A stretch of DNA of 64,000 bases, taken from positions 1,728,001 through 1,792,000 of the forward strand of contig OY729426.1 of assembly GCA_963422365.1 (NCBI GenBank), given 5' to 3'. The notes under the pieces were generated by a model that made no database searches, was not told the DNA's origin, and saw nothing but the letters and a program-made list of their open reading frames with translations. Below are positions 19,115 through 49,237 of the stretch, in pieces (the stretch's first letter is position 1; each line of letters opens with the position of its first letter). The stretch comes from Nitrospirales bacterium (lineage in GTDB: Bacteria > Nitrospirota > Nitrospiria > Nitrospirales > UBA8639). The position numbers and the translations under genes are program-made.

Positions 19115-19535
19115 AGAGAATGAGATCCGCGGCTAAGCAGACCGCGAAGGCCAGATTCACCATTCCGCCGAACCGATGCAGCCACACCGGCCAATTGTTG
19201 ACTCGTTGCAGCATCCAATCTCGACACGACACTGGGGCCCCAAGCAAAAGACAGGCTTTGGCCACGGCGATCCCGCCACACGCCACCCACAACCAAAATC
19301 CTTTGAGATCCACCGTGCCAATCATCAGGAGCAACCCCATCAGCAGCATCACTTGTGCAATCCAAAATCGCCACCAGGGCTCCAGGAAAAATCGTTTGGC
19401 ACAGGCGAGCCCCATCGTGGGCACAATGGTCATCATCAACCCAGCCAACCCCCAAACCAAACTTGTCAACCCCATGATGATGCTTGCGAACACCCCTTCA
19501 ACACCTTTTCTTGACGATGGCTCAAATCCATCCAA
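19107..19535 (-). CDS. Small 4-TM membrane protein; start uncertain
   Basis: Hydrophobic helices; resembles the neighbouring gene. Confidence 0.7.
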   Translation of the reverse strand: MDGFEPSSRKGVEGVFASIIMGLTSLVWGLAGLMMTIVPTMGLACAKRFFLEPWWRFWIAQVMLLMGLLLMIGTVDLKGFWLWVACGGIAVAKACLLLGAPVSCRDWMLQRVNNWPVWLHRFGGMVNLAFAVCLAADLILYG

Positions 19536-19899
19536 CGCTATGGATCAACAAAATCGAGAGCGTACACAACCCCAGGCCCCAAAAACGATAATCCACCGCC
19601 TGTCGGCTCAAGCACCAATTCAACGCGGAATGGCGCGTTTCGTCATCTGACAACAGAAAAAACCCTGCCTTCGCCACCATGGCGACCCCCGTGATCATCC
19701 ATACTCCTGAGTAGGTCAGATCAGTCGCTTGCAGAAGCAGGATCATGCCCGCCACCATGCTCACCCCCGACCATTTCATAAGTGAAGGGGAGGTCAAGAG
19801 GGCTTGTTTGATCTGCCCAACGATCCACAGAGGTGCCACCAATAAGGCCAAACCATCAGCCATCCATAACCCTGCAATGGCCATCAGGAGGTAGGGCAT
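19522..19899 (-). CDS. Small 4-TM membrane protein (DUF2065-like)
   Basis: AIAGLWMADGLALLVAP N-terminus, four hydrophobic segments. Confidence 0.7.
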   Translation of the reverse strand: MPYLLMAIAGLWMADGLALLVAPLWIVGQIKQALLTSPSLMKWSGVSMVAGMILLLQATDLTYSGVWMITGVAMVAKAGFFLLSDDETRHSALNWCLSRQAVDYRFWGLGLCTLSILLIHSVGWI

Positions 19900-20080
19900 T
19901 GCTTTGACCTATCCGTCTTTTCTGTATCAGGATGGTGTAAGAGAAAACGTCACGGCAAGACTGGCATTCACCAGGTTTCAGTGTCAAGCGAGGCGCTTGC
20001 TTCACCAATGTCCCTCTGCGTATGCTGCGCAAGCGATTATCATGTGCCTGTCTTCGTTCTTGCCGCCCTGAGCATGCCAT

Positions 20081-20578
20081 ATGACCGAGCTAGCCCAACA
20101 GACGGCAAAAGCCCTCGTTCAACTTATCCCCCCGTCCGTCGCACCCGATTTCCTCGAGGAATACGGATTGGTCCTGACCACCCAGCAGGCTCAAGCCATC
20201 ACCAAAGCGCTACTTGCACTGACCATGTATTGGATGACCTGTGCCGTTCGCGTGAGTATCCCGGAACCCGTCTGCGGCCAGATGCACCGAGCTATTCGTG
20301 AGCACGTTCGTGAAAAATGGGGCAGCAGATTCGGACTGGTCCACGTCCCCATCGATCAGTTTTTTGCCGTGATGGAACGCACGCATCAGACGTGGGAGCA
20401 GGTGACCCGACAAGGCGGGGAACCCATTGCGGTCTTGAGTGACGCGGCACGGGGGCTCGAGGATGACAACGTGATTGCCTCCCAGGATCGACAAAAAATC
20501 TTGGCGGTGTTTCTTGACTTGGTGCCTATCGAAGAAATAGGGGAGCTCATCGCTGAACTGGAGGAAACCCTGAGATAG
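20081..20578 (+). CDS. Hypothetical protein
   Basis: 165-aa ORF with natural composition. Confidence 0.7.
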   Translation: MTELAQQTAKALVQLIPPSVAPDFLEEYGLVLTTQQAQAITKALLALTMYWMTCAVRVSIPEPVCGQMHRAIREHVREKWGSRFGLVHVPIDQFFAVMERTHQTWEQVTRQGGEPIAVLSDAARGLEDDNVIASQDRQKILAVFLDLVPIEEIGELIAELEETLR

Positions 20579-20665
20579 GGTTGGTTACACATTAGAGCAT
20601 AACCGAATTCTCTAACAATACACATTCTTGCAACACCCGTTTTGCCAGGTTGGCTTGACATTTCC

Positions 20666-24000: not shown

Positions 24001-24325
24001 ACTCACCCCGCAGCAGCGCACGGCCATCAACTACCTCCAAGCCTTTATTAACCTCGACATTACCCATGCGAGAGAACAACAGCGTATTGCAGGGGCTATT
24101 GAATGGGTGAAACTGGGGCGTTATCAAAACCTGCCCAGAGAGATAGCCAAACTGCAAAGAAGCCAGAAAAATTCACCGGTGGTGCCCGCCAGACAACTGG
24201 AGGCACTGATAAAGATAATCGACAAGCATGCGCCGGAAACCACTGTGAACGACAGTGACGAACCGCCCGCCGAGCTGCAGGCCAACGAGCGGCCAAGGGT
24301 CGTTATTTCACAAAGCTATCTGTAG
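21053..24325 (+). CDS. PLD-nuclease-domain / SNF2-type helicase, RM-associated
   Basis: LHAKIYIF...SGSSNLT (PLD), SDVVGLGKT, VDEAH, SATPLNN, EGVNL, MQRIGRLNRIG. Confidence 0.92.
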   Translation: MATKFFTNDGENTLLEKFRGVFRHNPHIAEFDALVGYFYSTGYFHLRPHLQDIGQMRVLVGIDVDTITAQAQGRGLALLSGATQEQASRDYTRQFQEEIDGARYDRQTERSIEQFVQDIADGKIAIRAHPARKLHAKIYIFRPQAFNEHSGGEVISGSSNLTAAGLGADGDTANYEFNVSLRDYDDIQFATNEFEKLWHESVAILPEAVMDARNKTYLRGDFTPFELYIKLLVEYFGREVEFDPNSITDVPDGFKRLNYQLDAVEQGYILLQNHHGFFLSDVVGLGKTVVATLIARKHFFLNKYPEYRSHTLIVCPPAVCANWRETVDQFQLDNVDLMTTGSLHTITDPKKYDLIIVDEAHKFRNDTSTSYAELQRICKTPCRNDGRKRVILVSATPLNNRPEDIRNQLLLFQDASDSTLDINIARFFSRASREYKDLIKPSAPADAVERLESLYAGIRRKIIEPLTVRRTRTDLLRHPLYADDLQCQGIVFPKVEPPANLLYQLEPELNDTYQHSFDLIRNQHGNGLQYMRYRLIEYLKPEHKQDYQRPEFIAERLAAIMKTLLIKRLDSSFYAFHQSLKRFVHASRQILDMMDNNRVYLAPKQQIDQYLEEDREEELLEKLVQEQLTDPSIKVLTRDDFEPGLFALLQQDHALLQQMEAQWRKVVDQKADPKLELLLAELPKRLLNAEHNPERKLVIFSESADTTGYLYGKLRDQYRVLSIDSHNRALQQDIIRQNFDANLPLKEQKSDCDILIATESLAEGVNLHRANTIVNYDTPWNATRLMQRIGRLNRIGSPAGAIYIYNFLPTEQVEDDIGLKRRAQVKLQAFHTALGEDSQIYSVDEKVETFGLFDRNITEPEEVSGRLAYLMEIRAFREKHPDEFRRIKNLPLKIRNAVADPERSGATLCFLRNSKHNAFYQVDHDNQVTDLGFLEVAPIFKSHHNAALIKPLPDAHYNQVQRALAYFMEQVQDKIIKEQQAPELTPQQRTAINYLQAFINLDITHAREQQRIAGAIEWVKLGRYQNLPREIAKLQRSQKNSPVVPARQLEALIKIIDKHAPETTVNDSDEPPAELQANERPRVVISQSYL

Positions 24326-24359
24326 CATTGGAGCACTTCAGGTTGGGAAACAAAGAGTA

Positions 24360-25580
24360 ATGCCGGGTTTTGCTGACAAAGAGCTACGACAAATCATCGA
24401 ATCCGGCGAATCCGACCACGTCGAGTTCAAGGAGTCTTTATCCGGCGACGCCGCCACCAGAATCAGGGAAGCCATCTGCGCCTTTGCCAACGATTTGGCC
24501 GCTCACGACAAACCCGGTTTTGTGTTCGTAGGCGTGAAGGACGACAAAACATTTGGCAATCTGGCGGTTACAGATTCTTTGCTGCGACAGTTGGCCGACA
24601 TGAAAACCGACGGCAATGTCCTGCCGCCGCCCTCCCTGACCGTGCAAAAGCGCATCCTGCAAGATAAAGAAATCGCCGTCGTTATCGTGCAGCCCTCCAA
24701 CTCGCCACCGGTTCGCTGCAAGGGGGTTATCCATATCCGCACCGGCCCGCGTCGTGGTATTGCCACCGCACAGGATGAAAGGACGCTCAACGAAAAGCGC
24801 TGGTATGGCGACCGCCCCTTCGACCTCCAGCCAGTCTCTGTTGCCACCTTGAGGGATCTCAACCTCTTCCGGTTCGAGCATGAATACTTGCCGCAGGCCT
24901 TTGATCGCGCAATTCTGGAAGCCAACGAACGCAGTCTCGAAGAACGGTTGGCCGCGGCCAAGATGATTGCCTCTGCTGACGATCCCGTGCCTACAGTGTT
25001 GGGGATACTTGTATTGGTCAAACGGACACTGGATCACCTGCCGGGAGCGTATCTTCAATTCTTGAGACTTGCTGGTAACGAACTCACAGCCCCCATATCC
25101 GATGAAGAAGTAATCAGCGGAACCATTACGGATGTACTGCGCCGCCTTGACGAGAAGCTGAACGGGCACAATCGGACAGCGGTTGACTTCACATCGGGAC
25201 CAGTCGAGAGACGGGTCAGTACGTATCCGGTCCCAGCGATCCAGCAGATCGCTCGTAATGCGATCATGCACCGATCATACGAAGGAAGCCACGCTCCCAC
25301 ACGAGTGTACTGGTACGACGACCGTATAGAAATACTGAGTCCCTGGGGCGTATTCGGCTCGGTAACAGTAGAGAGTTTCGGCCGACCCGGCATTACCTCC
25401 TACCGCAATCCCAATCTTGCAGAGGCGATGAGAAACCTGGGGTTCGTGCAACGCTACGGCGTCGGCATTCCATTGGCGAATCGGCTGCTTCGACAAGCCG
25501 GGCATCCTGAAATGGAATTCAATGTCGATATGAACAACGTGCAAGTCACAATACTGGCTTGCAAGAAAGACCGGACATGA
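24360..25580 (+). CDS. AlbA_2 (Schlafen-type) DNA-binding domain + HATPase_c_4 / RecG-C-like domain protein
   Basis: ESDHVEFKES, ICAFAN, FVGVKDD, NAIMHRSY, YRNPNLAEAM, GFVQRYGVGI. Confidence 0.88.
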   Translation: MPGFADKELRQIIESGESDHVEFKESLSGDAATRIREAICAFANDLAAHDKPGFVFVGVKDDKTFGNLAVTDSLLRQLADMKTDGNVLPPPSLTVQKRILQDKEIAVVIVQPSNSPPVRCKGVIHIRTGPRRGIATAQDERTLNEKRWYGDRPFDLQPVSVATLRDLNLFRFEHEYLPQAFDRAILEANERSLEERLAAAKMIASADDPVPTVLGILVLVKRTLDHLPGAYLQFLRLAGNELTAPISDEEVISGTITDVLRRLDEKLNGHNRTAVDFTSGPVERRVSTYPVPAIQQIARNAIMHRSYEGSHAPTRVYWYDDRIEILSPWGVFGSVTVESFGRPGITSYRNPNLAEAMRNLGFVQRYGVGIPLANRLLRQAGHPEMEFNVDMNNVQVTILACKKDRT

Positions 25581-26620
25581 CCGTTCCCGTATTGACGTTT
25601 TTCAACAACAAGGGCGGCGTGGGCAAAACCTCGCTGGTCTATCACTTGGCCTGGATGCTGTCCGACATGGGGCATCGGGTGCTGGCCTGCGACCTGGACC
25701 CGCAGGCAAACCTGACCGCTGTCTTTCTGAATGAAACACAGCTTGAGGAGCTGTGGGAGACCGGCGACGGCGCGTCCGGGCGGACCATTCTGAACTGCGT
25801 CCGCCCACTGACGAAAGTGGGTGACATCAAAGCCCCGCTGCTGGCGGATATCACCCCCACGCTCCGCCTCATCCCTGGCGACCTGGCACTGGCCGGCTTT
25901 GAGGATACCCTGTCGGCGAAATGGCCGAATGCCCTGGGTTCCTCCGACAGTCTCTACCGTCCCTTACGTATTTTGACGGCATTCTCAACCGTCATGCAGA
26001 CCGGGGCAAAGCAAATGGAAGCGGATATTATCCTCGCCGACGTCGGCCCCAATCTCGGCGCGATCAACCGCTCAGCACTGATTTCGACCGACTCCATCAT
26101 CGTTCCTTTGGGCGCCGATTTGTTTTCTCTCCAGGGGCTGCGCAACCTGGGGCCCACCTTGAGCCAATGGCGACAGGACTGGCAACAGCGGAGAAACAAC
26201 TGGAAACAACCGGAATTTCCGCTGCCGAAAGGAGACATGAAACCTGTCGGCTACGTGGTGCAACAACACAGCGTGCGCCTGAGCCGCCCGGTTAAGGCAT
26301 ATGACAAATGGGTGAACCGGATGCCGGAAGAATACGCCCGGAATCTGCTGGACGATACAAAAGGCCCCTATCCGGCGACCCCGGCGCAAGACCATGAACA
26401 CGCCCTGGCCACCGTCAAGCACTATCGCAGCCTCGTGCCACTGGCACAGGAAGCGCGCAAGCCCATTTTTCACCTTACCCCGCCTGACGGCGCCATCGGC
26501 AGCCATGCCGCCGCGGTCACCGACGCCCGCCACGATTTCAGGGCACTGGCAGGGAAGATACTGGAAAGAATTGATTATCAGCGCCAGCCGAATCCCAAGC
26601 CACCGAGCCACCAAAAATGA
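25577..26620 (+). CDS. ParA family ATPase of the defence-island type
   Basis: FFNNKGGVGKT, DLDPQANLT, DVGPNLGAINR; ATGA-coupled to the upstream gene. Confidence 0.9.
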   Translation: MTVPVLTFFNNKGGVGKTSLVYHLAWMLSDMGHRVLACDLDPQANLTAVFLNETQLEELWETGDGASGRTILNCVRPLTKVGDIKAPLLADITPTLRLIPGDLALAGFEDTLSAKWPNALGSSDSLYRPLRILTAFSTVMQTGAKQMEADIILADVGPNLGAINRSALISTDSIIVPLGADLFSLQGLRNLGPTLSQWRQDWQQRRNNWKQPEFPLPKGDMKPVGYVVQQHSVRLSRPVKAYDKWVNRMPEEYARNLLDDTKGPYPATPAQDHEHALATVKHYRSLVPLAQEARKPIFHLTPPDGAIGSHAAAVTDARHDFRALAGKILERIDYQRQPNPKPPSHQK

Positions 26621-26635
26621 CTATTTCACAGCCCT

Positions 26636-29600
26636 ATGTCTGATTTGCAAACCTTATTAAGCAGTGGCTACGACCGCGAAAGCTGGCTAGCCCGATTGCA
26701 GCAGTTTTTCCCCGGCATTGAAATTTTCTCACAGCCGCAAGCTGTTGAAGACAACCGCGCAGCGTCCTTTGACTATCTCGGCAAGGTTCCCACTGCGGAC
26801 GGCCAGCAGTTGGGCATCTATGAAATAAAAGTCGGCGCTAACACCCAGCTCGCCCGCAACCGTGTGCAACTACGCCAGATGGTGGCCAAACAGGTTTCAG
26901 CGCATACCCTGGGTGGTGCACTGGCGGTTTACTACGACCATGGCCAACAGTGGCGGTTCAGCTTCATCAGCATGGAATACAAGCTGAACGAGCAGGGACA
27001 GATCGACAAGCAGGAAAGCACCTCCAAACGCTACACCTATCTGCTGGGCAAAGGTGCCAACGTCCGCACCGCGGTTGAGCGATTTGACCATCTACCGCAG
27101 CAACCATCGCTCGAAGACTTCAAAGCCGCCTTCGCCGTAGAGCCGTTGAACAAGGAATTCTATGAAAAACTGTTCAACTGGTATGAATACGCCAAATCCG
27201 AAGTCGTTTTCCCCAACGACGAACGCGAACCACAAGACAACCATACCGCTACCAGCCTGATCCGCCTGCTCACCCGTCTGCTGTTCGTCTGGTTTATCAA
27301 AGAGAAGAAGCTGGTCAACCCCGACCTGTTTGACCAGGAGCAATTGCAATCCATCATTGACTGGAAGAAAGACAGCAGCTACTACAAAGCCATTTTGCAG
27401 AATCTGTTCTTCGCCACGCTGAACCGCGAGATCAAAGACCGCAGCTTTCGCACGACTACCGACGGCAAGGCCAACAGCAGCAATTATCTCGTGACCAATA
27501 TCTACCGCTATCGGGACCATTTTCAGGAGAGCAATAAAGACAATATCATCGCCCGCTTTGCGCAGACCCCTTTCCTGAACGGCGGACTATTTGAGTGCCT
27601 GGACCGGCAAGCCAATGAGGATGAACAACAGAAATATGAAAAAGACAAAACCATCCGCAATGAAAGATATGCCATGCGCATGGACGGCTTTTCCGACCGG
27701 GCGGACAATCCCCTCAGCCTGCCCAATGCATTGTTTTTCAGCGATGACGAACGCAAACCCGGCCTGATCGACCTGCTGCATCAATACCAGTTCACGGTGG
27801 AGGAGTCCACCCCGCTGGATATTGAAGTGGCGCTGGACCCGGAGCTGCTGGGCAAGGTGTTTGAAAACCTGCTGGCGGCCTATAACCCTGAAACCGAGCA
27901 AACCGCCCGTAACGCCACTGGCAGCTACTACACCCCGCGTGAGATTGTCGGTTATATGGTGGATGAAAGTCTGAAAGCGTATCTGGCCGGCGCGGTGCCG
28001 CCGCAGGATGGCGATGCTGAATTCTGGCGCGAACGCTTGGACGATCTGTTTAACATGGCCTCTCAGACCGGGGAACTGGCAGAGAAAAATGGGAAAGCCC
28101 TGCTGTATGACGAAGAAATCCCCGAACTCATTCAAGCCATCGACCAGGTCAAAATCCTCGACCCGGCAGTGGGTTCCGGCGCCTTCCCCATGGGTGCTTT
28201 GCAGCGGCTGGTCGGGCTGCTGGCGATTCTCGACCCGAACAACCGGCAATGGAAAGAGCAGCAACTGCTCAATCTGCCGGATATGCAATCCATCCAGGCC
28301 GACCTGCAAACATCAGAAAACATCAACGACTGGCAAGCCAGACAAAAGGCGCAAGAGGAATTGCAACAGCGAAAGCAGGAAATCACCCGGGCATTTGAAA
28401 CAGAAGCCGACTACGCCCGCAAACTTTATCTGATAGAAAACGCCATCTGCGGCGTGGATATCCAGCCCATCGCCTGCCAGATTGCCAAACTGCGCTTTTT
28501 CATCTCCCTGGCCATAGAGCAGCAACCGACCGCCGACAAGAAGGACAATTACGGCATCAAGGCCCTGCCTAATCTGGAGACCAGATTTATTGCTGCCAAC
28601 AGCCTCATCGGCCTGGACAAGCCCAGGCAGACGGTAATACGCAATCCGGCCATTCAGGAAAAAGAACGGGAACTGAACCGGGTGCGCCGCCGCCACTTCA
28701 ACGCCAAAACCCTAAAAACCAAAAGGCAATATCGGGAACAGGATAAAACACTCCGTGAAGAGATTGCCGCGTTATTGATAAGTGATGGCTGGGGCGACAG
28801 CAATGCCGAGAAAGTCGCCCACTGGGATCCCTACAACCAGAACGCTGTCGCCGACTGGTTCGACCCGGAATGGATGTTCGGCATCAGCGACGGCTTTGAC
28901 GTGGTGCTGGGCAATCCGCCGTATATCCAATTGCAGAAGAACGGCGGCATGCTGGCAAATCTCTACGAAAACAGGGGCTTTGAAACCTTTGTGCGCTCTG
29001 GCGACATCTACCAGTTGTTTTATGAACGCGCCGGTCAACTGCTGGGTAACCAGAGCCACCTGTGCTTCATTACCTCTAACAAATGGATGCGCGCCAAATA
29101 TGGCGAGAAACTCCGCGCCTTCTTTACCACCCTAACCCCCAAAGTTTTGCTGGATTTTGGTGGGTTCAAAGTCTTCGAGAATGCCACGGTGGATACCAAT
29201 ATCCTGCTCATTACAAAGGAAAACGTGCAAGGCGAGTTGTGGGCAACGGCGTTCAAAGACGATTTCAAACAAGGCGACAGCATCGGCGATTACGCGCAGA
29301 ACAACGCCGTTTCTATTAACGTAACGCCCGATACCTGGTTTATCGGCAGCCGTGCGGAAGTCGCATTAAAAGAAAAGATTGAGCGCATCGGCACACCGCT
29401 AAAAGAATGGGATATAGCCATTTATCGAGGAATACTGACGGGACTTAACGCCGCCTTTATCGTCGATAAAAAGACCAAAGACGCACTGATTGCCGAGGAT
29501 CCCAGATCGGCGGAGCTACTAAAACCGATCCTGCGCGGAAGGGATATCAAGCGGTATCGGGCGGAATGGGCGGGGCTGTGGGTGATCGCGACTTTGCCGT

Positions 29601-30187
29601 CTTTACACGTTGACATTGAGAACTATCCGGCAATAAAACGATATTTGCTTTCTTACGGCAAAGAAAAGCTAGAACAGACAGGAGAAACGCTTGTTGATGG
29701 AAGCAAGTCGCGAAAGAAAACCCCTCATCAGTGGTTTGAATTACAGGATACATGCGCTTACCACGCGGAATTTGAACGCGATAAGCTCGTTTGGGGAAAC
29801 TTGTCTGTTCAGCCAAGGTTTGCTGTAGATACGGATGCCAGCTCTATTTCTGCACCAACCAATCTTCTTACGGGAACGGATCAAATAAAATATATTGCTG
29901 CGATTCTCAATAGTTCATTTTGCTATTGGAGCATGAGGCGATTGGCTTACAGCAGAGAACACGGATATATGGAATACAAGAAAATTTTTGTGGAACAGAT
30001 ACACATTCCGAAAATCTCCAAAGTGAGACAACAACCGTTTACAGATTTAGTAGATAAAATCCTTGCTGCCAAAAAGGCTAATCCTGATGCAGATACAAGC
30101 GAACGGGAAAAGGAAATCGACCGCCTCGTCTATGCGTTGTACGATCTCACCGAGAAAGAAATTCAGGTAATTGAAGGCATTGCCTGA
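26636..30187 (+). CDS. Type IIG (Eco57I-like) restriction-modification enzyme: N6-adenine MTase with C-terminal TaqI-like TRD
   Basis: PFLNGGLF, GSYYTPREIV, ILDPAVGSGAF (motif I), GNPPY (motif IV), FITSNKW, LRGRDIKRY, EIDRLVYALYDLT tail; possible N-terminal E-x-K nuclease motif (YEIKV). Confidence 0.93.
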   Translation: MSDLQTLLSSGYDRESWLARLQQFFPGIEIFSQPQAVEDNRAASFDYLGKVPTADGQQLGIYEIKVGANTQLARNRVQLRQMVAKQVSAHTLGGALAVYYDHGQQWRFSFISMEYKLNEQGQIDKQESTSKRYTYLLGKGANVRTAVERFDHLPQQPSLEDFKAAFAVEPLNKEFYEKLFNWYEYAKSEVVFPNDEREPQDNHTATSLIRLLTRLLFVWFIKEKKLVNPDLFDQEQLQSIIDWKKDSSYYKAILQNLFFATLNREIKDRSFRTTTDGKANSSNYLVTNIYRYRDHFQESNKDNIIARFAQTPFLNGGLFECLDRQANEDEQQKYEKDKTIRNERYAMRMDGFSDRADNPLSLPNALFFSDDERKPGLIDLLHQYQFTVEESTPLDIEVALDPELLGKVFENLLAAYNPETEQTARNATGSYYTPREIVGYMVDESLKAYLAGAVPPQDGDAEFWRERLDDLFNMASQTGELAEKNGKALLYDEEIPELIQAIDQVKILDPAVGSGAFPMGALQRLVGLLAILDPNNRQWKEQQLLNLPDMQSIQADLQTSENINDWQARQKAQEELQQRKQEITRAFETEADYARKLYLIENAICGVDIQPIACQIAKLRFFISLAIEQQPTADKKDNYGIKALPNLETRFIAANSLIGLDKPRQTVIRNPAIQEKERELNRVRRRHFNAKTLKTKRQYREQDKTLREEIAALLISDGWGDSNAEKVAHWDPYNQNAVADWFDPEWMFGISDGFDVVLGNPPYIQLQKNGGMLANLYENRGFETFVRSGDIYQLFYERAGQLLGNQSHLCFITSNKWMRAKYGEKLRAFFTTLTPKVLLDFGGFKVFENATVDTNILLITKENVQGELWATAFKDDFKQGDSIGDYAQNNAVSINVTPDTWFIGSRAEVALKEKIERIGTPLKEWDIAIYRGILTGLNAAFIVDKKTKDALIAEDPRSAELLKPILRGRDIKRYRAEWAGLWVIATLPSLHVDIENYPAIKRYLLSYGKEKLEQTGETLVDGSKSRKKTPHQWFELQDTCAYHAEFERDKLVWGNLSVQPRFAVDTDASSISAPTNLLTGTDQIKYIAAILNSSFCYWSMRRLAYSREHGYMEYKKIFVEQIHIPKISKVRQQPFTDLVDKILAAKKANPDADTSEREKEIDRLVYALYDLTEKEIQVIEGIA
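29412..29792. repeat. 381-bp inverted repeat, left arm (within the IIG gene)
   Basis: Reverse complement of 30573-30953; both arms translate IAIYRGILTG...FERDKLV identically. Confidence 0.96.
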
Positions 30188-30188
30188 G

Positions 30189-30953
30189 TTAATTCATCGC
30201 TTCCACAAGTTCAATTTCCTTCTCCGTCAGGCCGTATAATTGATATACCAGTCGGTCAATCTCGGCTTCTATCGCGGTGGTGTCCTTCCTTTTTTCCTTG
30301 CCAGCAATCACTCTATCCACCAAGTCGATGAAGGGTTGTTGCGTTATTTCCAAGATTCGCGGTGCTGGAAAATTCTCAAAAAACACTTTGCTCAATTCTC
30401 TTGTCCCGCCAAGCAATTCTGGGCAATTTTCCCGTAACCATTTTGCTCCAACTCTTGAATTCAGTATCGCGGTAAGAAATTTCAGATGTTTCCCAGTAAC
30501 TATGAAGCATTTTTGGTTTGTGAAAATTTTATGTATCAAATACAAAAGGTAAAAACTTCGTCATATTGGGATAAACGAGCTTATCGCGTTCAAATTCCGC
30601 GTGGTAAGCGCATGTATCCTGTAATTCAAACCACTGATGAGGGGTTTTCTTTCGCGACTTGCTTCCATCAACAAGCGTTTCTCCTGTCTGTTCTAGCTTT
30701 TCTTTGCCGTAAGAAAGCAAATATCGTTTTATTGCCGGATAGTTCTCAATGTCAACGTGTAAAGACGGCAAAGTCGCGATCACCCACAGCCCCGCCCATT
30801 CCGCCCGATACCGCTTGATATCCCTTCCGCGCAGGATCGGTTTTAGTAGCTCCGCCGATCTGGGATCCTCGGCAATCAGTGCGTCTTTGGTCTTTTTATC
30901 GACGATAAAGGCGGCGTTAAGTCCCGTCAGTATTCCTCGATAAATGGCTATAT
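30189..30953 (-). pseudogene. Silent alternative C-terminal TRD cassette of the IIG enzyme (one frameshift near 30530)
   Basis: KLVYPNMTKFLPFVFDT* then FTNQKCFIVTGKHLKFLTAILNS...EIDRLVYQLYGLT. Confidence 0.9.
30573..30953. repeat. 381-bp inverted repeat, right arm
   Basis: Boundaries read directly: atatagcc/ggctatat and gctcgttt/aaacgagc. Confidence 0.96.
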
Positions 30954-30979
30954 GCGTTACTAATCTCAACACTTATATT

Positions 30980-31015
30980 TGCTCTCCTTTCAATAAACCA
31001 CACATCAGGAGAGCA
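30980..31015 (+). promoter_or_regulatory. Hairpin occluding the recombinase ribosome-binding site
   Basis: TGCTCTCCT (30980-30988) pairs with AGGAGAGCA (31007-31015); AGGAG lies 8 nt before the ATG. Confidence 0.55.
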
Positions 31016-31019
31016 TAGG

Positions 31020-31994
31020 ATGACGAAATCTACTCATATCTGCACCGACAAAGCGATCTTCTCCGACAGCCTGCGCCACGCGCACATGGCCGACAACACC
31101 CGCCGCGTGTACGGCGAGGGCTGGGCGCTGTTTGCCGACTGGTGTACGCAAGCAGGATGTGAGCCGCTGGCGGTTTCACCCCAGGACCTCGTGGACTTTT
31201 TCACTGAGTTGGCACTTCGCCGCAGAAAAGGCACAGAGAAGCCGCTGGCCTACGGCACCTTGATGCTGGTGCGGTGTGCAGTACGCCGCCGGTATGCGGA
31301 CGCCAATCTGACGTCGCCGACCCATCATCCAGAAGTCACCAACCTATTCCGTGGCTTGGCCCGCCTGCGTGGCACAAAGCCGAGACGGGCCAACGCCCTA
31401 CGCGAAGATCACATGGCCGCGATCCTGGCCTGTTGTCCCCCGACCGCCCGTGGCGCACGGGACGCCGCCGTGCTGGCGATTGGCTTTGCGGCCGCCTTGC
31501 GCCGCTCGGAATTATGCGGGCTGTCGATAGGGGATATTGAACGGTTTCTGACGGCGGAGGGGGAACCCTCCGGTATCATATTGCATATCCGTCGCTCGAA
31601 GACGGACCAGGCAGGGCGGGGCCAACAGGTCGCGGTGCCCGCCGGGAAACGGATTCGCCCGGTCGCCGTCCTGGATCGCTGGCTCCGCATCCGTGGCTCC
31701 CACGCCGGCCCACTTTTTCAATCATTGCGCCGGGGCGGACGACTCACCGGCCGCCCGCTCCACCACTCTGACATTCCGCGCCTGGTGAAACAGTATGCCG
31801 CGGCCATTGGGCTGGACCCGGCCGGGTTCTCCGCCCACTCCTTGCGGGCAGGCTTCGTCACCAGTGCCGCGGTCCATCATGCGCGGATGGACAAGATCAT
31901 GGCGGTCACCCGTCACACCAACACGAATACAGTCATGAAATACATCCGCGATGCGGCCGTGTTTACGGACCATGCCGGACAGGAGTTTCTGTGA
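31020..31994 (+). CDS. Cre-like tyrosine recombinase
   Basis: Full catalytic set: ALRRSEL (R), RSKTDQ (K), HSLRAG (HxxR), TRH, MKY; N-terminal ADNTRRVY. Confidence 0.93.
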   Translation: MTKSTHICTDKAIFSDSLRHAHMADNTRRVYGEGWALFADWCTQAGCEPLAVSPQDLVDFFTELALRRRKGTEKPLAYGTLMLVRCAVRRRYADANLTSPTHHPEVTNLFRGLARLRGTKPRRANALREDHMAAILACCPPTARGARDAAVLAIGFAAALRRSELCGLSIGDIERFLTAEGEPSGIILHIRRSKTDQAGRGQQVAVPAGKRIRPVAVLDRWLRIRGSHAGPLFQSLRRGGRLTGRPLHHSDIPRLVKQYAAAIGLDPAGFSAHSLRAGFVTSAAVHHARMDKIMAVTRHTNTNTVMKYIRDAAVFTDHAGQEFL

Positions 31995-32055: not shown

Positions 32056-32095
32056 CAGGAAGCCGAAATCGACCGACTGGTGTATCAGCTATACA
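32056..32095 (+). repeat. 40-bp direct repeat, IIG C-terminal tail remnant, copy 1
   Basis: CAGGAAGCCGAAATCGACCGACTGGTGTATCAGCTATACA, identical at 35500-35539; encodes EAEIDRLVYQLY. Confidence 0.92.
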
Positions 32096-32132
32096 ATCTG
32101 ACCAAGAAATCGAAGTGGTAGAGGCATAGCTA

Positions 32133-32670
32133 ATGAAATCCCGGTGCAGAGAATTGACTGACAAGGCGATAGCCGCAACTGTGGCTGCTATCGAGATTTA
32201 CAACAAGCCGGACTTTCCCTATCGGGCGGAAACCTTTTGTATTCTGGCCATCAATGGCTGGGAACTGCTTTTGAAAGCGAAATGGTTGCATGAGAATAAC
32301 AACAAGATTCGGTCTCTCTATGTGAGGGAACCCTACCAGAAGAAAGATGGGACGCCGAGCAAGCGATTAAAAATCAAGCGCACTCGCTCAGGCAATGCAT
32401 TCACGCACGGTATAGATTATCTTGCCAGGAAGCTTGTCGGCCAGAAGCATCTAGATCAAACAGTACTAAAAAATATAGAGGTATTGCTTGAATTGCGAAA
32501 TTCTTCCGTCCATTTTTACCATCAATCCGACACAGCACTGGCAACCCAACTTCAGGAATTAGGCGCTGCCAGTCTCAAAAACTTCGTGCTAGCCATGAAA
32601 GACTGGTTTGCCCGCGATTTAAGTGAATTCAATTTTTACCTGATGCCGCTATCGTTCGTATGTCTGCCTC
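32133..32670 (+). pseudogene. DUF3644 family protein, 3'-truncated
   Basis: AAIEIYNKPDFPYRAETFCILAINGWELLLKA, LRNSSVHF, FNFYLMPLSF; then reads into antisense btpA. Confidence 0.8.
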
Positions 32671-33008
32671 AAGGAACGGCCGGCGGCAACGGCAACAGCC
32701 AGGGCGGAAGGGGCATCGCTGCGCAGCATATTGACCCCTACCGGCAACGACGTTGTCCGGCATACCCGGTCAACCGCCCGGGTCATCGCCGCCACTGTTT
32801 CCGGCTCCACTCGACCAATGCGGAAGGGCGCATCGCCGAAGTTTTCCACGATGATGCCGTTGGCCCCACCCCGTTCCATGGTCAGAGCTTCCCGTTCCGC
32901 CTGCTCCAGCACAGCGTCCATATCGCCGCCCCAGCGGGGCGCGCCGGGCAGCGGTGGCAGGTGAATTACGCCGATGAAGACTTTGCCTTTGCCGAATAGT
33001 AGGGTCAT
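32670..33008 (-). pseudogene. BtpA/SgcQ family, N-terminal fragment
   Basis: IGVIHLPPLPGAP, GIIVENFGDAPF, PVGVNMLR; truncated at the DUF3644 junction. Confidence 0.8.
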
Positions 33009-33190
33009 ACTCACCCCTTCTGCTAATTCCTTCCTCTCCGCAACTTCTGCTTATCGTTCCAGCGCCGAAGGGAACGCCGACAGGGACAACTAGGGAGCGA
33101 CTACGAGCAGGCCGGACAAGGCGGTTTACTGATGTTGCCGGTTAAAATTTGGACAGCGTATTGCGCTCCGCCAAGAGCCGGACATACGAC

Positions 33191-34063
33191 TTAACCTTTG
33201 CCATGGTTTTCGTGTAGCTGACCGCGTTTGCGATTGCGCTCCGCCAAGAGCCGGATATACGACTTAACCACTTGATCCAGATCGCTGGATTCTCCGTATT
33301 TAGCCGGGACTACATGGTGAACGCGCCCGTCCGTGCGGAACTGCTCCGCCTTTTCCTTGGCCCCCTTGGTATTCGGCGGGAAGACTGCTATAGACCGTCC
33401 ACCCTGCTCTTTCACCAGCCGGAAACAAGGGATATCGGTGGAACCGTCGCCGATATAGACCAAGTTCTCGAAAGGTATTGGGCGCCGGTGCGGTTCAATG
33501 AATTTGTTTATCTCGCGGTCACTGCTCAGGTCATAAGCCCCCTTGTTGATACGGAAGAGGTACTGGGTCTTAGTGGTATAGTTGACCGCTTGGGAAGCCC
33601 AAACTGCGACGCCATTTTCGTCGAACAGAAACCTGGAGGCGTATATCTTCTCAAAATTGGATGCGATGGAGCAGCCTTCGATAATTTCAGCATTGCCGGA
33701 AGAAATGATGTAATGCTTGATAGCGATGCCCTCTTGCTTTCCGTATTCATTAATCCGGTTAAACCAGCCGGTAACGCCCTCAAAACCGGTAACGCCCTCA
33801 AAAAACTCAATGTCTTTCCCGCGGGTTTGGAAGTCATCTAATCGCACTGGCATGCGAGCCGCCCGAGCTTTTTCCAGCATAAGATACATATAAATCAGGA
33901 CGCTATCGGCTTGCTTGTCCTTGGCGATGCTGTTAACCTCCGCCCAGAAATCTTTGGGTTTCATTCTGATGTCCGGGATAAATTGACGTTCCTGGACATT
34001 GCCGGGAGCCAGGGTGCCATCAAAATCATAGACGATAGCCATTGGTATATATCGGCTTGACAT
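33191..34063 (-). CDS. HAD family hydrolase
   Basis: YDFDGTL, IISSG, NYTTKTQYLFRINKG, YIGDGSTD. Confidence 0.9.
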   Translation of the reverse strand: MSSRYIPMAIVYDFDGTLAPGNVQERQFIPDIRMKPKDFWAEVNSIAKDKQADSVLIYMYLMLEKARAARMPVRLDDFQTRGKDIEFFEGVTGFEGVTGWFNRINEYGKQEGIAIKHYIISSGNAEIIEGCSIASNFEKIYASRFLFDENGVAVWASQAVNYTTKTQYLFRINKGAYDLSSDREINKFIEPHRRPIPFENLVYIGDGSTDIPCFRLVKEQGGRSIAVFPPNTKGAKEKAEQFRTDGRVHHVVPAKYGESSDLDQVVKSYIRLLAERNRKRGQLHENHGKG

Positions 34064-34068
34064 CGGCG

Positions 34069-34551
34069 TTAACTCCTGATACGGGGGTTCTGGCGGGCGC
34101 CCACGTTAGGACTCTCCGGATAATCCTCACGTAGGGCATAGCGTCCTTTCTGATACGGGCGTATGAAACGGCCGTCTCGGGTCATCCGGGAAACCAGGGT
34201 TGCCTCAGGCGTGGCCCCGCCTATAATGCCGCCTCGTCTCATTACTTCTACCGCCAAGTCTTTATAATACATCGGTTTCTTGTCTTGCTCCCGTAGAATT
34301 TCCGCAGCAAGGTCGCAGATGTTGCGGTTGCTGTCAGGATGAAAACTACGACCTTCTGGCATAGCGCCGTCGTCTGGGAGTTCAGCAGGAGATTCAGGAA
34401 GTCCCAACAATCCTCGCACGTGGCATAGTCGGGAAAAGCTGTCCGCCTTTTTGCGCTTCAATTTAACAATATCTTGGCGAAGCCCGGTCAGTTCTTGCTC
34501 CAGTTTTACCCGCTCTTCTTCGAGCAACTGAATTAGTTGGGAATTATCCAT
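34069..34551 (-). CDS. Coiled-coil + winged-helix (HARE-HTH-like) protein
   Basis: AAEILREQDKKPMYYKDL...GATPEATL...GRYALRE; GGAGG ribosome-binding site. Confidence 0.75.
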   Translation of the reverse strand: MDNSQLIQLLEEERVKLEQELTGLRQDIVKLKRKKADSFSRLCHVRGLLGLPESPAELPDDGAMPEGRSFHPDSNRNICDLAAEILREQDKKPMYYKDLAVEVMRRGGIIGGATPEATLVSRMTRDGRFIRPYQKGRYALREDYPESPNVGARQNPRIRS

Positions 34552-35095: not shown

Positions 35096-35195
35096 AGAGA
35101 ATGATCGGGTTTATCACCGCATCCATGATTTGTGCGAAGTGCCTGCCCGAGTGCGTTTTCTGTCGTGTGAACCACCCAGCAGGCTCAAGCCATCA

Positions 35196-35485: not shown

Positions 35486-35678
35486 GGACACCAGCGCATC
35501 AGGAAGCCGAAATCGACCGACTGGTGTATCAGCTATACAGGCTGACGGAGGAAGAGATTAAACTTGTGGAAGCGATGAATTGACTCAGGCAATGCCTTCA
35601 ATTACCTGAATTTTTTCTCGGTGAGATTGTACAGCGCATAGACGAGGCGGTCGATTTCCTTTTCCCGTTCGCTTGTAT
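35486..35678. repeat. Diverged inverted copy of the tail-to-tail TRD junction (about 30093-30285)
   Basis: cttgtggaagcgatgaattgactcaggcaatgccttcaattacctgaa...tcgatttccttttcccgttcgcttgtat matches the reverse complement of the junction. Confidence 0.9.
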
Positions 35679-35746: not shown

Positions 35747-36490
35747 TTACATGAATTTCATGAACTTCTCTTTGGCCTCATCCATGAGTTCGGCGGAGAC
35801 CGTGGTTGCGCCACGCTCTTTGGCCAGCCGTTCAATCTCCTTGCGGGCCATGGGTTGAATAAAGTCCGGAATGTTGTCCAATCGCTGTTCGGCTTCGGGC
35901 GACCAAGTCATGCCGTTCGATGCATTCTTCGAATCATCCATGACTTGCAGTGTGACGGTGGCATAGCCGTTCTTCCGCGCATATGATTCCACGCTACCCT
36001 TGACCATCGGCTGCACAAACGACGGCAAGTTGCCTAACCGTTCCTGCGCATCAGCGGTCCATTGAAGATCGGATGGTTGCGTGCCGATGGAAGCTTCGCC
36101 GGGGGTTAATCCCATTTGCGCGACCATCGCGGAAAAAGGACAACCGCCGGACTCTCCTTCCTTCGCAGGGGTACCGGCTGCGGGGCTCGTGCCCTGTCCC
36201 GCGTGAATTTTTTCGTTCAGATAGGCGGCCATGGACCCTGACGCTGCCGGCGCACTGACTTCTTCTTTTAATGTACCACGAGTCATTTCCAAGGGAGATG
36301 CGGCCTCTGTCCGCCCACCAAGCTGGACACCCAGGGAACTGACCATTTGCGTTTCGCCCGGATTCGTCACCATGGAAAACTTCGCACCACAGGAGGGGCA
36401 GGCGAAAAAAACTCCGAGGGACCCTTCGGCGGGTTTCTCGACCTTTTCAAAACTCATATAGGTTTCACAGGTTAAGCAGATAAATTTCAT
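35747..36490 (-). CDS. PCP_red-domain protein with an N-terminal Cys motif
   Basis: CLTC...CPSC; two W(T/S)xxAxxRLxN(L/I)PxF(V/I)QPM repeats. Confidence 0.8.
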   Translation of the reverse strand: MKFICLTCETYMSFEKVEKPAEGSLGVFFACPSCGAKFSMVTNPGETQMVSSLGVQLGGRTEAASPLEMTRGTLKEEVSAPAASGSMAAYLNEKIHAGQGTSPAAGTPAKEGESGGCPFSAMVAQMGLTPGEASIGTQPSDLQWTADAQERLGNLPSFVQPMVKGSVESYARKNGYATVTLQVMDDSKNASNGMTWSPEAEQRLDNIPDFIQPMARKEIERLAKERGATTVSAELMDEAKEKFMKFM

Positions 36491-36544
36491 AACAGCCTCA
36501 CTCGGGAGAGTTGAAAGTAAAAAAGGGGTGTGCCCTCTTGTTGC

Positions 36545-37459
36545 TTATAGTTTTTCGGCCAGCACTTTTTTGTAATCCAACATTGATTGAAGACGCACGA
36601 CAAGATCCGTATAGCGCTGGCTCGTCGGATAGTGCTCATCCAACAACGGTGTTCCTTTATCAAACGTCTTGGCAAAATTCCGGTCAAATGGAATGCGGCC
36701 GAGCAACGGCAGATTGAGGGCTTCACACAGGCCTGCGGTATTGCCTTCGAACAGCTCATTCTCGGCGCCACAAGACGGGCACCGGTATTGACTCATGTTT
36801 TCAACGACTCCCAACACGGTGATCCCCAACTCCGTCGCATACCCAATCGACTTCTGCACAACCGTTGATGCCACTTCCGAAGGGGTCGTGACCACAACCG
36901 CGCCGGCAAGATCCGGAAGAAAGCTGGCGAGGACCGGAGGTTTATCCGCAGCGGCTCCCGGGGGAAGATCGGCCAGCAAATAATCCAAGTCTCCCCAGAG
37001 AATATCGGCGAGGAACTCCCGAATCACATTCATTTCCATGAGCCCCAACCAGACGGGACTCAAATCCATCGGACCTTTCCACCGTACCGGAGACGTGTCA
37101 TTGAGCAAGAAATCCATGGAGGCCACTTTGATGCCATAGGGTCCTTCCGGCGGTCGCGCCCCTTCCGGCGTGACCTCAAGCTCCTTGCCAAGCATCCCCA
37201 TCATTCGGGGAATGCAGGGCCCGTTGAGATCCACGTCGATGATCCCAACGTTGTGGCCTTGTCGTCCCAATGCCAAGGCTAAATTGACCGTGGTCATGCT
37301 CTTCCCGACTCCGCCTTTGCCGCTCATCACCACGATCTTGTGCGTGATCCCCGACATGCGGTCATGGACCTGCCTGGTCTGCTGGGTGATTTGCTGCACG
37401 ACCTTGGCGTCGTCGGTGTATTGCAATTTCCTGAGAATGCTTTTCAGGTCTTTTTCCAT
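36545..37459 (-). CDS. mrp: Mrp/NBP35 (ApbC) Fe-S carrier ATPase
   Basis: MSGKGGVGKS, DVDLNGP, WGDLDYLLADLPPG, VENMS...CPSC. Confidence 0.9.
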   Translation of the reverse strand: MEKDLKSILRKLQYTDDAKVVQQITQQTRQVHDRMSGITHKIVVMSGKGGVGKSMTTVNLALALGRQGHNVGIIDVDLNGPCIPRMMGMLGKELEVTPEGARPPEGPYGIKVASMDFLLNDTSPVRWKGPMDLSPVWLGLMEMNVIREFLADILWGDLDYLLADLPPGAAADKPPVLASFLPDLAGAVVVTTPSEVASTVVQKSIGYATELGITVLGVVENMSQYRCPSCGAENELFEGNTAGLCEALNLPLLGRIPFDRNFAKTFDKGTPLLDEHYPTSQRYTDLVVRLQSMLDYKKVLAEKL

Positions 37460-37664
37460 AGCAGGTTCGTCTCCCATTCGCACACATCTGGAAATGTTGC
37501 AAACAAAGACGGTCTTTCCTGGACAAAGAAGAGAAGAAAACCCGCGTTACCCTAAGCCTACACGGAACGAGTCTAGTCTATTCGCAAGTATCCGGATAAC
37601 GGGATGGGGGTTTCCATGTTTCCATCATCGAATCCCATCGAATACACCAAATTCTCGAATGCTC

Positions 37665-42312: not shown

Positions 42313-44042
42313 CCTCCCTACAAGCCCACCGTCCAGGAGAACACGATGCCGTGCTCAGTGGCGCTGTCAAGGGTGGTTTGCTGTATCCCCTCGAGGCTGA
42401 GGGCCATGGCCTCGTGGACCTGGAGGTGGCCGCCCAGCCGATACCGGCTGGTGGCCGGCCCGGTGGCGACGCCCCCGTAGGGCGTCACCAGCCACCCGGG
42501 CTGGCGCAGGGCCAGCCCATAGCCAACGTCCGCCGTCAGCCGGCCCACGGCCCCGCCCGCGGGCGCCCCGTTGCCGGCCGGCCCGGCCTCACGGCCCCAC
42601 AACTGCTCCACGCCACTGGCCGGGGTGCCCCACGTCGGCTCGAACGCCACCCACAGCCCCTGCCCCCCCAGCCCCTCTCCTACTTTCACGGCGAGACTGC
42701 CGCCCCAAGCCTCAAAGTCCGTTGCCTGATGCGCCAGCAGATACCGGCCGCGAGCCGCGAGACTCACCCCCCACCACCTCTGCTGATACTCGACCCCGCC
42801 GCTGAGCTCTGCTCCCATCCCCGTCTCGGCGTCGCCGTTGTCCCAGCGCCCCCCCAGCTCCACACTGGGCTGCAGGGCCGACTCTGGTGACAGGGCGACG
42901 TCCGTCTTCATCGCCAGCGCCACCCGCGCCCGGTGCGCCACCCCGGTCACCGCCGCCAGCCCCGCGGCTTCGTCCGCTTTCACCCGCACGGCAAACGCAT
43001 CGGATTTTACCGCCACCTCGATCCCGTGCCACGTGGTCAGCGCCTGCCGCCCGCCTACCGCGGCCAGCAGCAACTGAACGTCCGTCTCCACGCGCCCGGC
43101 GGCGTCTTGCACCTCCAGCTCCCCTACGCCCGCGCCCGCGAGGCCCCACAGCCCAAGCCCCGGAGACGGCGTGTAGTGGACATAGGGCAGCACGCTGGTC
43201 ATGGCTAGGTCTACCTCGCCCCGGATGCCCCCTCGCTCGCCGCTGACCAGGAGAAAGTCCCCCGCGACCTCGTAGTCCAGGCCCCCCACGCTGTGCGACA
43301 CCGCGACGCCCGCTAGCCCCTTCTGCCCGAACCGGTAGTCCAGTCCTACGTAGCCCGTGTAGACCGCCCCGTCGGTCTCCAGGAGCTGACTGGAAAAGCC
43401 GCTGGCCGCCCCCGTGCCCCAGAAGGTCCAGCCCGTTGTCAATTCACCCTCGTTCGTCCTGGTCAACGGCACGGCAAACTCGCTGCGCGCAAACACGTCC
43501 GTGGCCGCAAGTCGCGGGGACCGGCTCGGGGCCACCCGGCCCTCGGCCGCTCGGCCTCGGCCGGCCGAGTCCCGGCTCGCTCCCGTCAGGCCCAGCACCC
43601 CGCCCAACACCCCCGCTACGGACCGGATGTCCAGGGCGGGGACTGCCGTGCCCCCCACCGTGACCGCCGGCTTCCCAACCGGCGGCGCCCCAAACCGGCG
43701 CCCGATCACGGCCACCGCCTCGGTGGCGGCTGTCCGCCCGAACGCCGCGAGGGCCACCGTGAGCGCCCGGGAACGGTGCGTCACCTCAGCAGCCTGCACC
43801 GTCACCCTGAAGTGCAACTGCCCCGTCTGGCCATCGGCGTCCGTGGCCGTGTCGGTGAACCGCGTCTTCGCCACCGCCTCCGTGGGCGTGCCGGTGATGG
43901 TGCGCGCCTTTGCCTCAAAACTGAGCCCCGCCGGGAGAGCCGGACTCAGCCGGTAGGTGATCGGCCCGTCTCCCCCCGTGGCTGCCGGCAGCCGCACGTC
44001 AACGGCCTCGCCAACCGTCCAGTTGTACTCCTCAATCGAGGC
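42313..44042. repeat. About 1.73-kb near-identical direct repeat, copy 2
   Basis: Matches 4258-5987. Confidence 0.95.
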
Positions 44043-47000: not shown

Positions 47001-49237
47001 GCAAGATTGTTGGGATTGTCCCAGGTTAATGTCACTTGGCCGTTGCCAATGACCTTCGCAAGGCCGGTGGGTTTGGGCGGCGCCGCCGCTGGCGCCGCGA
47101 CCAGCTTGACCCCGATGACACTGGATGCCGGCCCATGAACATAGTCACCGGCCACCGCCCGAAGGCGAAAGTAGTATTTCACGCCGGCGGGTAACCCGGT
47201 CACCACGTGCCGGATGGTGTCTTTGTCGCTGCCCGGAATGTCGCTCCAGGCATTCCAGTCGGGTTTACTCCCGACGTGTGCAATCGGCACGCCCCGCCGC
47301 CGGATCTGATATTTGATAATGGCACCATTATTGGGATGACCCCAGCTTAACGTGACTTGTCCGTCGCCACGTACCGCGGTGACGACAGGCCTGTTGCTAG
47401 GCGCGGTCGGCGTGCGCCCCGGGGTCACGGTCATCACGTCGGACGGCGCCCCCGTCACATTGCCGGCCACCGCCCGAAGGCGAAAGTGATACTCTGTGCC
47501 GTCGGTCAGTTTCCGTACCACGCGCTTCTCTGTAATCGCAGTTATGGCACCTGAAAAGTCAACCCAGCCGCCGGCAGGCTCGGTCTTGCCCGTCCATCGT
47601 TTATACTGATACCCGGTGATGGCAGCATTGTTGGGATCGGTCCACCGAAACTTGACTTTGCCACTGCGCGCAATCACTGTGAGCCCGACAGGGGCCGCCG
47701 GGGGGGGGTACTGTAGAGGAGGTCACTGTCACTGTAGAGGTGGCAGCAGAGGTGAGTGATTCGGCGGCGCCGCCAGCATCGGTCCAGCTGACGGTGACGG
47801 TGATGGCGGCCCCAACATCGGCTTGCTTCAGGACGTAGGTGTTGCCGTTGGCGCCGCTGATGGCGGTGCTATCGCGTTTCCACTGATAGCTAAATATCAA
47901 ATTACTGGGGCCATCGGGGTCGGAGATGCCGGCAGTCGCTGCGATCAGTGTCTGGCCCTGGGTGGCGGTGCCGGTGATGGTGCCGGTCGGGGAGTCGTTT
48001 ATGTTCGCTACGTTCGCTGTCGCAACAGAGGTGAGAGATTCGGCGGTGCCGCCGGTATCGGTCCATCTGACGGTGACGGTGATGACCGCCCCGACGTCGG
48101 CTTGCGTCAGGGTATAGGTGCTGCCGGTGGCACTGCTGATGTCAGTCGTCAGCACGTGGGTGCTGCCGCCACTGATGACAGTCACGCCGCGCTTCCATTG
48201 GTAGGTGAAGGTTAGACTGCTGGGGCCGTCGGGGTCGGAGATCGTGCTGGTATCCGCGGTAAGCGTCTGGCCCTGGGTGGCGGTGCCGGTGATGGTGACG
48301 GTGCCGGTCGGGGCGCTGTTATCATTATCGGTCAGGGTAACGCTGACGTTGGGGATGACCACTGAGCCGTAGCCGCCGCCACTGATTGCATGGGTGATGG
48401 TGGTGCTGCGGTCGGCACTGGTGCTGTCGTCCACGCCGGTGACGGTGATGGGCTGTGCCGTATTCCAGTTGGCAGTGGTAAACCTCAGGGCCGCAGACAC
48501 GGTGGCCACGCCGGTATCGCTGCTGGCGGGGGTGACGGTGACGGTGCCCGTGGGTTGGGTGTCCAGTACGACGGTGTAGGTAGCGGTATTACTGCTGCCG
48601 CTGGCTTCGGTGACGGTGACACTGCTTTTCGATACGGTGACGCCGGCGGTATCGTTGTCGTTATAGCTCACTTCTAAATCAAAGGTATCCGACCCGCCAC
48701 TGATGAAGCCACCGCCGGACGGAGTATGCCAGATGACGAGTTCAGGTATACTGCCATGATCGACTTGGTTATCCACGACGGTGACGGTGACGGTCTGCGG
48801 GGTGTTCCAGTTGGTTCTGTTGAAGGTCAGGGAGGCCTGGGACACGGTGACTTGAGTATCATCTTCGCTTGCGAGCGCTACGGTCACGTTCCCGGTCGGT
48901 TGTTGATTCAGTTTCACGGTGTAGGTGCGAGAGCTCGGGTATGTTTCGTCAGTACCTGTGCCACCTTCTGCCAGATTTGTTATCTGCGCTACGGAAAACG
49001 TGAGGGCGATGAATCCAAACTGTGCGGCGACCGGCAGGACACAGATGAGAGAGAGGATCAGGCCGAGGGTCGCGGCGAGGTACCGCCGGGGTTCAGAAGT
49101 TAGGGTGCCGAACAGAAATTTCAGGGGGGGGGGAGGGGGGGGGGGGGGGGGAGGGTGATGAAGGAGGCGGTGAGAGCCCGCAGACCAGGGACGTGGTTCA
49201 ATCTCTTCACAGGGTGAAAGTGTCGGTGTCGGTTCAT
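42318..49237 (-). pseudogene. Giant surface adhesin 2 (about 2300 aa if repaired): signal peptide, Calx-beta/cadherin-like domains, 2 Ig-like repeats, about 6 FN3, He_PIG-like domain, beta-barrel; three frameshifts
   Basis: GGAGG-led ATG at 49237; breaks at the 49124-49151 tract, the 47700-47708 tract and near 46041; ORFs 47601-48917, 46004-47677 and 42318-46010 are domain-contiguous. Confidence 0.8.

Follow-up and report, generated by a model that had tools for sequence, protein, structure and literature searches.

Inversions in four Cj0031-like type II restriction-modification (RM) loci have been confirmed by long reads, and two of these loci have a PLD and SNF helicase neighbour (Milman, Yelin and Kishony 2023, PMC9881135; this and the other papers cited are used in part). 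Here we describe a similar arrangement in a stretch of 64,000 nt from a Nitrospirales bacterium (GenBank assembly GCA_963422365.1, contig OY729426.1, positions 1,728,001 to 1,792,000), referred to as the window, in which a IIG-type adenine methyltransferase gene is followed by an inverted copy of a part of its target recognition domain (TRD) and by a tyrosine recombinase gene. The published Bacteroides ovatus locus (CP083813.1:5322008-5329826), for which an RNA-seq test is listed, shares with it an IIG-type gene of similar length (3.4 kb, 3.55 kb here), the PLD-SNF gene upstream, inverted repeats in the 3' part, a truncated silent copy nearby and the enrichment of recombinases in the neighbourhood. 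In contrast, the spare copy in the window is broken, two accessory genes stand between helicase and methyltransferase, and of these two loci only that of B. ovatus has long-read proof. Likeness of the window enzyme to Cj0031-like genes is at the family level (PADLOC IIG model). The original prediction for this DNA had considered such a switch in a IIG enzyme, particularly with a PLD-helicase partner, as less commonly described. This no longer holds, as Table 3 of Milman et al. contains a long-read-confirmed inversion of a Cj0031-like gene with PLD and SNF helicase immediately upstream. The architecture including the PLD-SNF2 partner is already published with long-read proof, and the window locus, which descends from this class and works in its manner, is a degenerate member, since a full-length alternative allele is missing. 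In the parts of PMC9881135 used here the recombinase clade is unnamed and the crossover core unmapped. What the window and its relatives add is anatomy: where the crossover must lie, three base-reading modules as the shuffled units, and the look of a decaying copy.

Similarities to other known systems are partial. The SpnIII/cod hsdS inverton (PsrA/CreX; PMC7672463) also shows a tyrosine recombinase beside silent TRD copies, inverted repeats and combinatorial alleles, but belongs to a Type I system with a separate HsdS, whereas here the CamA/TaqI-like TRD is fused to the methyltransferase and the partner is PLD-SNF2 instead of HsdR. Campylobacter jejuni Cj0031 exhibits ON/OFF variation of a IIG-type enzyme, the likely outcome here too, but switches by a polyG tract and not by inversion (PMC9881135). 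CamA (PDB 7LNI/8CXZ; PMC8187626) is the closest solved methyltransferase-TRD structure and places the base contacts in the three swapped modules; unlike the window enzyme it is orphan and invariant, with neither a nuclease-like N-terminal domain nor a cassette. The portions of PMC5903667, PMC12839542 and PMC4618763 used here contain nothing on IIG inversions.

The repeat arms at 29412-29792 and 30573-30953 comprise 381 nt, are 100% complementary and lie 780 nt apart. They enclose two half-TRDs arranged tail to tail, the expressed one (B1) beginning with WGNLSVQPRF and the silent one (B2) with YPNMTKFLPF. Homology of the silent copy stops at 30953, 66 nt before the open reading frame of an intact Cre-like recombinase with R161, K194, H273, R276, H299 and Y308 in place. 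The repeat, the two half-TRDs and an intact recombinase 66 bp beyond the right arm had all been predicted correctly. The repeats lie inside two nearby, oppositely oriented coding sequences with the asymmetry of a gene and a pseudogene, the silent copy having nothing of what precedes the first repeat in the gene. With 1183 aa, a PADLOC REase_MTase_IIG match (8e-159), the Pfam domains Eco57I and TaqI_C and an NPPY motif in the translation, the expressed protein is an adenine methyltransferase with a fused C-terminal TRD, as is characteristic of type IIG.

The silent half-TRD, on the other hand, had been taken for an intact alternative and is not. Its reading frame continues for 14 codons beyond the arm to a TAA stop (30531-30529) and resumes in another frame (30545-30189); measured against the intact relatives L124, P0175 and P0230, its spacing is 2 nt short. 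In-silico inversion of the segment gives 1066 aa instead of 1183 aa, so that inversion at the window locus could only be ON/OFF. A perfect long inverted repeat on its own is no proof of a working specificity switch. From the original prediction the invertible-TRD design stands, by comparison with related loci (11 of 25, with reciprocal swaps in three pairs), while the swap of specificity at this locus does not. The probable explanation is an inherited TRD shufflon with homogenised arms and a dead spare B module, in which a flip now means OFF.

The consequence of the break can be read from CamA, to which methyltransferase residues 753-1095 align (E 2.6e-14) and whose published base contacts (PMC8187626) were transferred via this alignment. 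CamA Q346 and I349 correspond to R931 and L934 in the start module, R425, Q438, W439 and R441 to 1024-1041 in module A inside the arm, and Y455, K456, S472 and A473 to 1055-1073 in module B, past the last arm-common residue 1052. S514, I517 and Y521 are beyond the aligned stretch, further C-terminal in B. Because the break at 1066 precedes the equivalents of S472 and A473 and removes the later contacts, the shortened protein most likely cannot read its site and has lost its function.

Related loci were gathered by recombinase search and subsequent inspection of the neighbourhood, giving 25 distinct full-length places (E <= 1e-60). Recombinases were obtained from 2 of 53, 7 of 301 and 14 of 201 genomes in the separate sets, and a further search contributed too. 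One search returned 23 matches, of which 20 were distant actinobacterial ones and left out of the cassette inspection; a metagenome scan yielded 34 distant matches (25-50%). The IIG-type gene, the inverted spare TRD and the recombinase occur in the same order in 11 of the 25 loci. Among these, the spare is an intact frame of 243-263 aa in nine and broken in L129 and L130, and a helicase homologue lies inside the examined region in ten, with just a weak short match in L026.

The arms of the relatives are not long perfect repeats but mostly consist of an outer block of 115-180 bp and an inner block of 44-56 bp; only L129 has a long repeat (363 bp, 97.8%). Homology between the arms begins at the same codon, and a perfect run of 7-11 nt precedes the Y/N codon in eight of nine loci measured (L103 and L129 were outside this measurement), with L106 having 6 nt in common one base earlier. 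Start modules are unlike between the copies in 8 of 11 loci and modules A in 10 of 11. Since the arms of the relatives differ and have in common several nested points of homology besides the outer core of 7-11 nt, the perfect repeat of the window looks secondary. A different in-frame spare start module is usable only with a crossover upstream of it, which places one crossover, as we infer, in the short outer core.

In three locus pairs the inner modules occupy opposite positions, with 63-81% identity across loci compared to 20-51% within: 77% and 76% for L099/L100 (20-23% to their own partners), 81% and 63% for L103/L104, and 72% and 65% for L102/L106. Judged from these alignments, modules were swapped over evolutionary time and between species, which is no measure of the present rate. 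B2-type halves are expressed in the full-length proteins P0175 and P0230, and the silent half of L124, which is intact, has 68% identity to B2 itself. Arms with the alpha type of module A in both copies are found only in the window and in L129, and the spares are broken in both. Intact relatives (e.g. L124, L102, L106) form natural libraries from which TRD modules could be assigned to recognition motifs, and they are better test cases than the window locus. In L100 the expressed and silent TRDs are separated by ~1.4 kb more DNA (start codons 2888 nt apart, ~1500 elsewhere), and module A in the silent TRD of L104 is of a third type, distinct from both alpha and beta.

The following sequence of events would account for the locus. 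The ancestor presumably had a complete silent TRD inverted behind the gene of a two-gene defence module (PLD-SNF2 helicase and IIG-type adenine methyltransferase). Inversion at three nested homology points, namely the outer core of 7-11 nt, a block of ~100-170 bp and an inner block of ~45 bp, would have reshuffled the start, A and B base-reading modules. In the window lineage, gene conversion may then have made start and A alike in both copies, which would explain the 381-bp repeat, and a frameshift struck the B module of the spare. Were the segment flipped now, whether by the recombinase or by RecA acting on the 381 bp, the product would be the 1066-aa protein without distal base-reading loops.

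Sequencing samples were used to examine the repeat and the lesion. Four of 19 listed runs were compared with the window, X1, X4 and X6 as contigs and X12 as Hi-C; X1 and X4 are from one study, and one of them may be the source sample of the assembly, the other being a different sample of the same study. The B2 lesion is covered without a single difference or gap by contigs of X1 (30160-30602, depth 68) and X4 (30160-30588, depth 395), whereas the contig of X6 (30190-30459) ends short of it and X12 placed 0 reads. Contigs of X1 stop at 29441, 30602 and 30924, each time 30 nt inside the repeat, and the arm has a depth of 129.7 compared to 65-68 on the flanking contigs. At 29422 two X1 contigs depart from the window into the alternative start module, and two come in at 29777 from beta-like sequence; a 409-nt contig of X4 (depth 255) consists of 63 unlike letters followed by 29777-30122 without a difference. 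All these joints fall at points predicted by the shuffle model.

An error of the assembly in the repeat or in the frameshift is hardly credible. The assembly consists of one contig and other frameshifts occur nearby, but the breaks at three arm ends, the doubled arm depth and the unchanged lesion in X1 and X4 largely refute it. An active switch between two specificities, in which the flip expresses a working second C-terminus, is highly improbable as well. Nine of the 11 related loci do have an intact spare, and B1 preceded in X4 by 63 nt unlike module A could mean that module A still varies in some populations; against this stand the stop and frame deficit of B2, unchanged in contigs of two samples and without a long homopolymer at the break, and the flipped frame of 1066 aa. 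Somewhat less improbable, but still unlikely, is a frozen relic without meaningful flipping, whose repeat arose from one conversion event and whose recombinase is a passenger or acts elsewhere, e.g. on the recombinase-tail units of the mosaic island. The broken spare, shared with the other locus with equal arms, the truncated DUF3644 gene in the island, the frameshifted paralogous recombinase and the 14 of 25 homologues that are solitary point in this direction. The window recombinase is, however, intact with all catalytic motifs, a perfect 381-bp repeat is by established knowledge itself a substrate for homologous inversion, and the remnant at 35486-35678, with 89.7% identity to 30285-30093 over 194 nt, is arranged as the flipped state would be. 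The tail of this remnant shows 3 differences in 97 nt, and an X6 contig covers the remnant with 0 differences. An argument from its divergence relative to the undiverged arms as a clock was dropped, as 3 differences are too few.

Several observations weigh against the inherited shufflon with a dead spare. The flipped state of the window locus was seen in no read or genome, where contigs cannot phase a 381-bp repeat and 0 raw reads were placed, and an intact B2 may be present in a minority of the population, with contigs dropping rare alleles. The variant joints, matched at 88% likeness, may derive from other organisms with this island; an Arenicellales assembly, which lacks the cassette, has 92% nucleotide identity to 2.3 kb of the gene and to pieces downstream. 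In L124 the B modules agree with those of the window in type and position. The GC content of the recombinase (0.64) departs from that of the TRD parts (0.40-0.48), 14 of the 25 recombinase loci are without such a cassette, and the linked recombinases form no single clade but are mixed with solitary ones (6 changes on a quick tree). No near-identical flipped strain was found, the protein cluster having one member and the next N-terminal match 88%.

Owing to the loci without cassette and the polyphyletic linked copies, the recombinase does not appear to be a dedicated invertase by descent. With linkage in only 11 of 25 loci, it may act on the cassette ends. Comparison with the PDB gives XerD (2e-5) and Cre (2.3e-5), and the R-K-H-R-H/W-Y catalytic motifs are kept in 119-120 of 120 homologues. 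By eye, no symmetric loxP-like site could be defined from 20 site sequences, and a literature search on the recombinase clade turned up no paper. A wider proposal has the Cre-like clade drive the three-point start/A/B shuffle of a CamA-like TRD through a core of ~7 nt across phyla (Chloroflexota, Gammaproteobacteria, this probable Nitrospirota genome), with the locus here actively switching the entire defence module ON and OFF and module A still varying within populations; we put it forward tentatively and rather doubt that it holds in full. Solitary recombinase copies in L097, L125 and L126 adjoin inverted repeats of 120-250 bp without an RM gene, which could be dispersed repeats or other invertons.

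The cassette looks horizontally acquired, as the recombinase was not found with the window query in 114 other family genomes and the helicase-methyltransferase pair of G023 adjoins the same core gene without a repeat; in G023 the AlbA_2 gene is missing between the two. This neighbouring core gene falls in clusters in which Nitrospirota is the most frequent known phylum, so that the host probably belongs there. In 15 regions from the own and genus genomes no inverted TRD pair was found. The same genome contains a decayed paralogue (L011, C1:617.6-619.1 kb), in which a beta-type module A, a tail, the stub of the inverted arm and, beside this stub, a frameshifted paralogous recombinase remain. 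It also contains a second, distant pair of PLD-helicase and methyltransferase without inverted repeat (L012:6410-12333; G000:C1:1.178-1.184 Mb).

The single-chain IIG enzyme of the original prediction is retained for its architecture, while cutting by its own N-terminal domain is in doubt. Residues 1-170 are modelled with pLDDT (predicted local distance difference test) values of mostly 74-94, but structure matches are weak: DrdV, the top one, with Z 6.0, root-mean-square deviation (rmsd) 3.9 and 108 aligned residues, where unrelated folds tie at Z 5.8-5.9, and BpuSI with Z 5.2, rmsd 5.0 and 136 aligned. Foldseek gave no useful match for this domain. Of the PD-(D/E)xK set, D55 is present in 110, E63 in 119 and K65 in 30 of 120 homologues. 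As the E-x-K lysine is kept in so few, cutting is possibly carried out by the PLD-SNF2 protein, which is probably the motor and nuclease partner of the methyltransferase and the likelier nuclease of the two. The features of the locus are collected in Table 1.

Table 1. Features of the defence module and its TRD cassette in the window.
Feature	Position	Strand	Support or comparison
PLD (HxK) nuclease + SNF2 helicase, 1090 aa	21053..24325	+	Pfam PLDc_2, SNF2-rel_dom, Helicase_C; PADLOC HKD+Snf2 4e-47
AlbA_2 + HATPase_c_4 protein, inserted accessory gene	24255..25580	+	Pfam
ParA/AAA_31 ATPase, inserted accessory gene	25559..26620	+	Pfam
Intact IIG-type adenine methyltransferase (Eco57I/TaqI_C) of 1183 aa, TRD at the C-terminus	26636..30187	+	PADLOC, Pfam
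Left arm, comprising YRG-type start module of the TRD, alpha-type module A and inner conserved block	29412..29792	+	
Outer core ATATAGCCATT, immediately 5' of the TRD start codons; putative region of crossover	29412..29422	+	
Expressed inner half-TRD B1 (WGNLSVQ...), intact	29793..30187	+	60% identical to expressed half of L124
Silent inner half-TRD B2 (YPNMTKF...), broken: stop 30531-30529 and 2-nt frame deficit	30189..30572	-	
Right arm, same as left arm, without in-frame start codon of its own	30573..30953	-	
Tyrosine recombinase of 324 aa, Cre/XerD-like, with complete catalytic set; GC 0.64	31020..31994	+	Pfam Phage_integrase
TRD C-terminal tail remnant, 3' of recombinase	32056..32109	+	Recombinase-then-tail unit also in L011, L028
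Chimeric remnant: TRD tail (+) joined to inverted copy of cassette centre and expressed tail	35486..35678	.	

A scan of the locus for promoters and terminators remained at chance level (2 compared to 1.6 expected). Downstream of the cassette, the DUF3644 / PDC-S19 gene (32133-32999) matches its model up to residue ~180 and continues with unrelated sequence, as a truncated defence gene; L028 carries a 92% identical stretch of this region. The island also contains, at 33191-34551, a candidate defence gene of the HAD family (PDC-S34, 3.8e-116) together with a HARE-HTH gene, and a 37-bp direct repeat (97%) at 33160-33269 duplicates the 3' end region of the HAD gene.

A perfect 25-bp direct repeat (20177-20201 and 35171-35195) was considered as a pair of attachment (att) sites and rejected, because the flanking genes are ordered otherwise in genus relatives and the right copy lies between two pieces that are separate in L028; this copy resembles a templated patch at a rearrangement joint. 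The order of the blocks 19500-20590 and 35747-37483 is permuted: in genus relatives the PCP_red/Mrp genes precede the gene at 20081 by a few kb, but in the window they are located downstream of the island. Further outside, large repeat proteins are encoded at 4263-8492, with ZirU-like repeats, and at 42318-48917, the latter seemingly split over three open reading frames; the two have 1760 nt in common at 99% (4258-6017 and 42313-44072).

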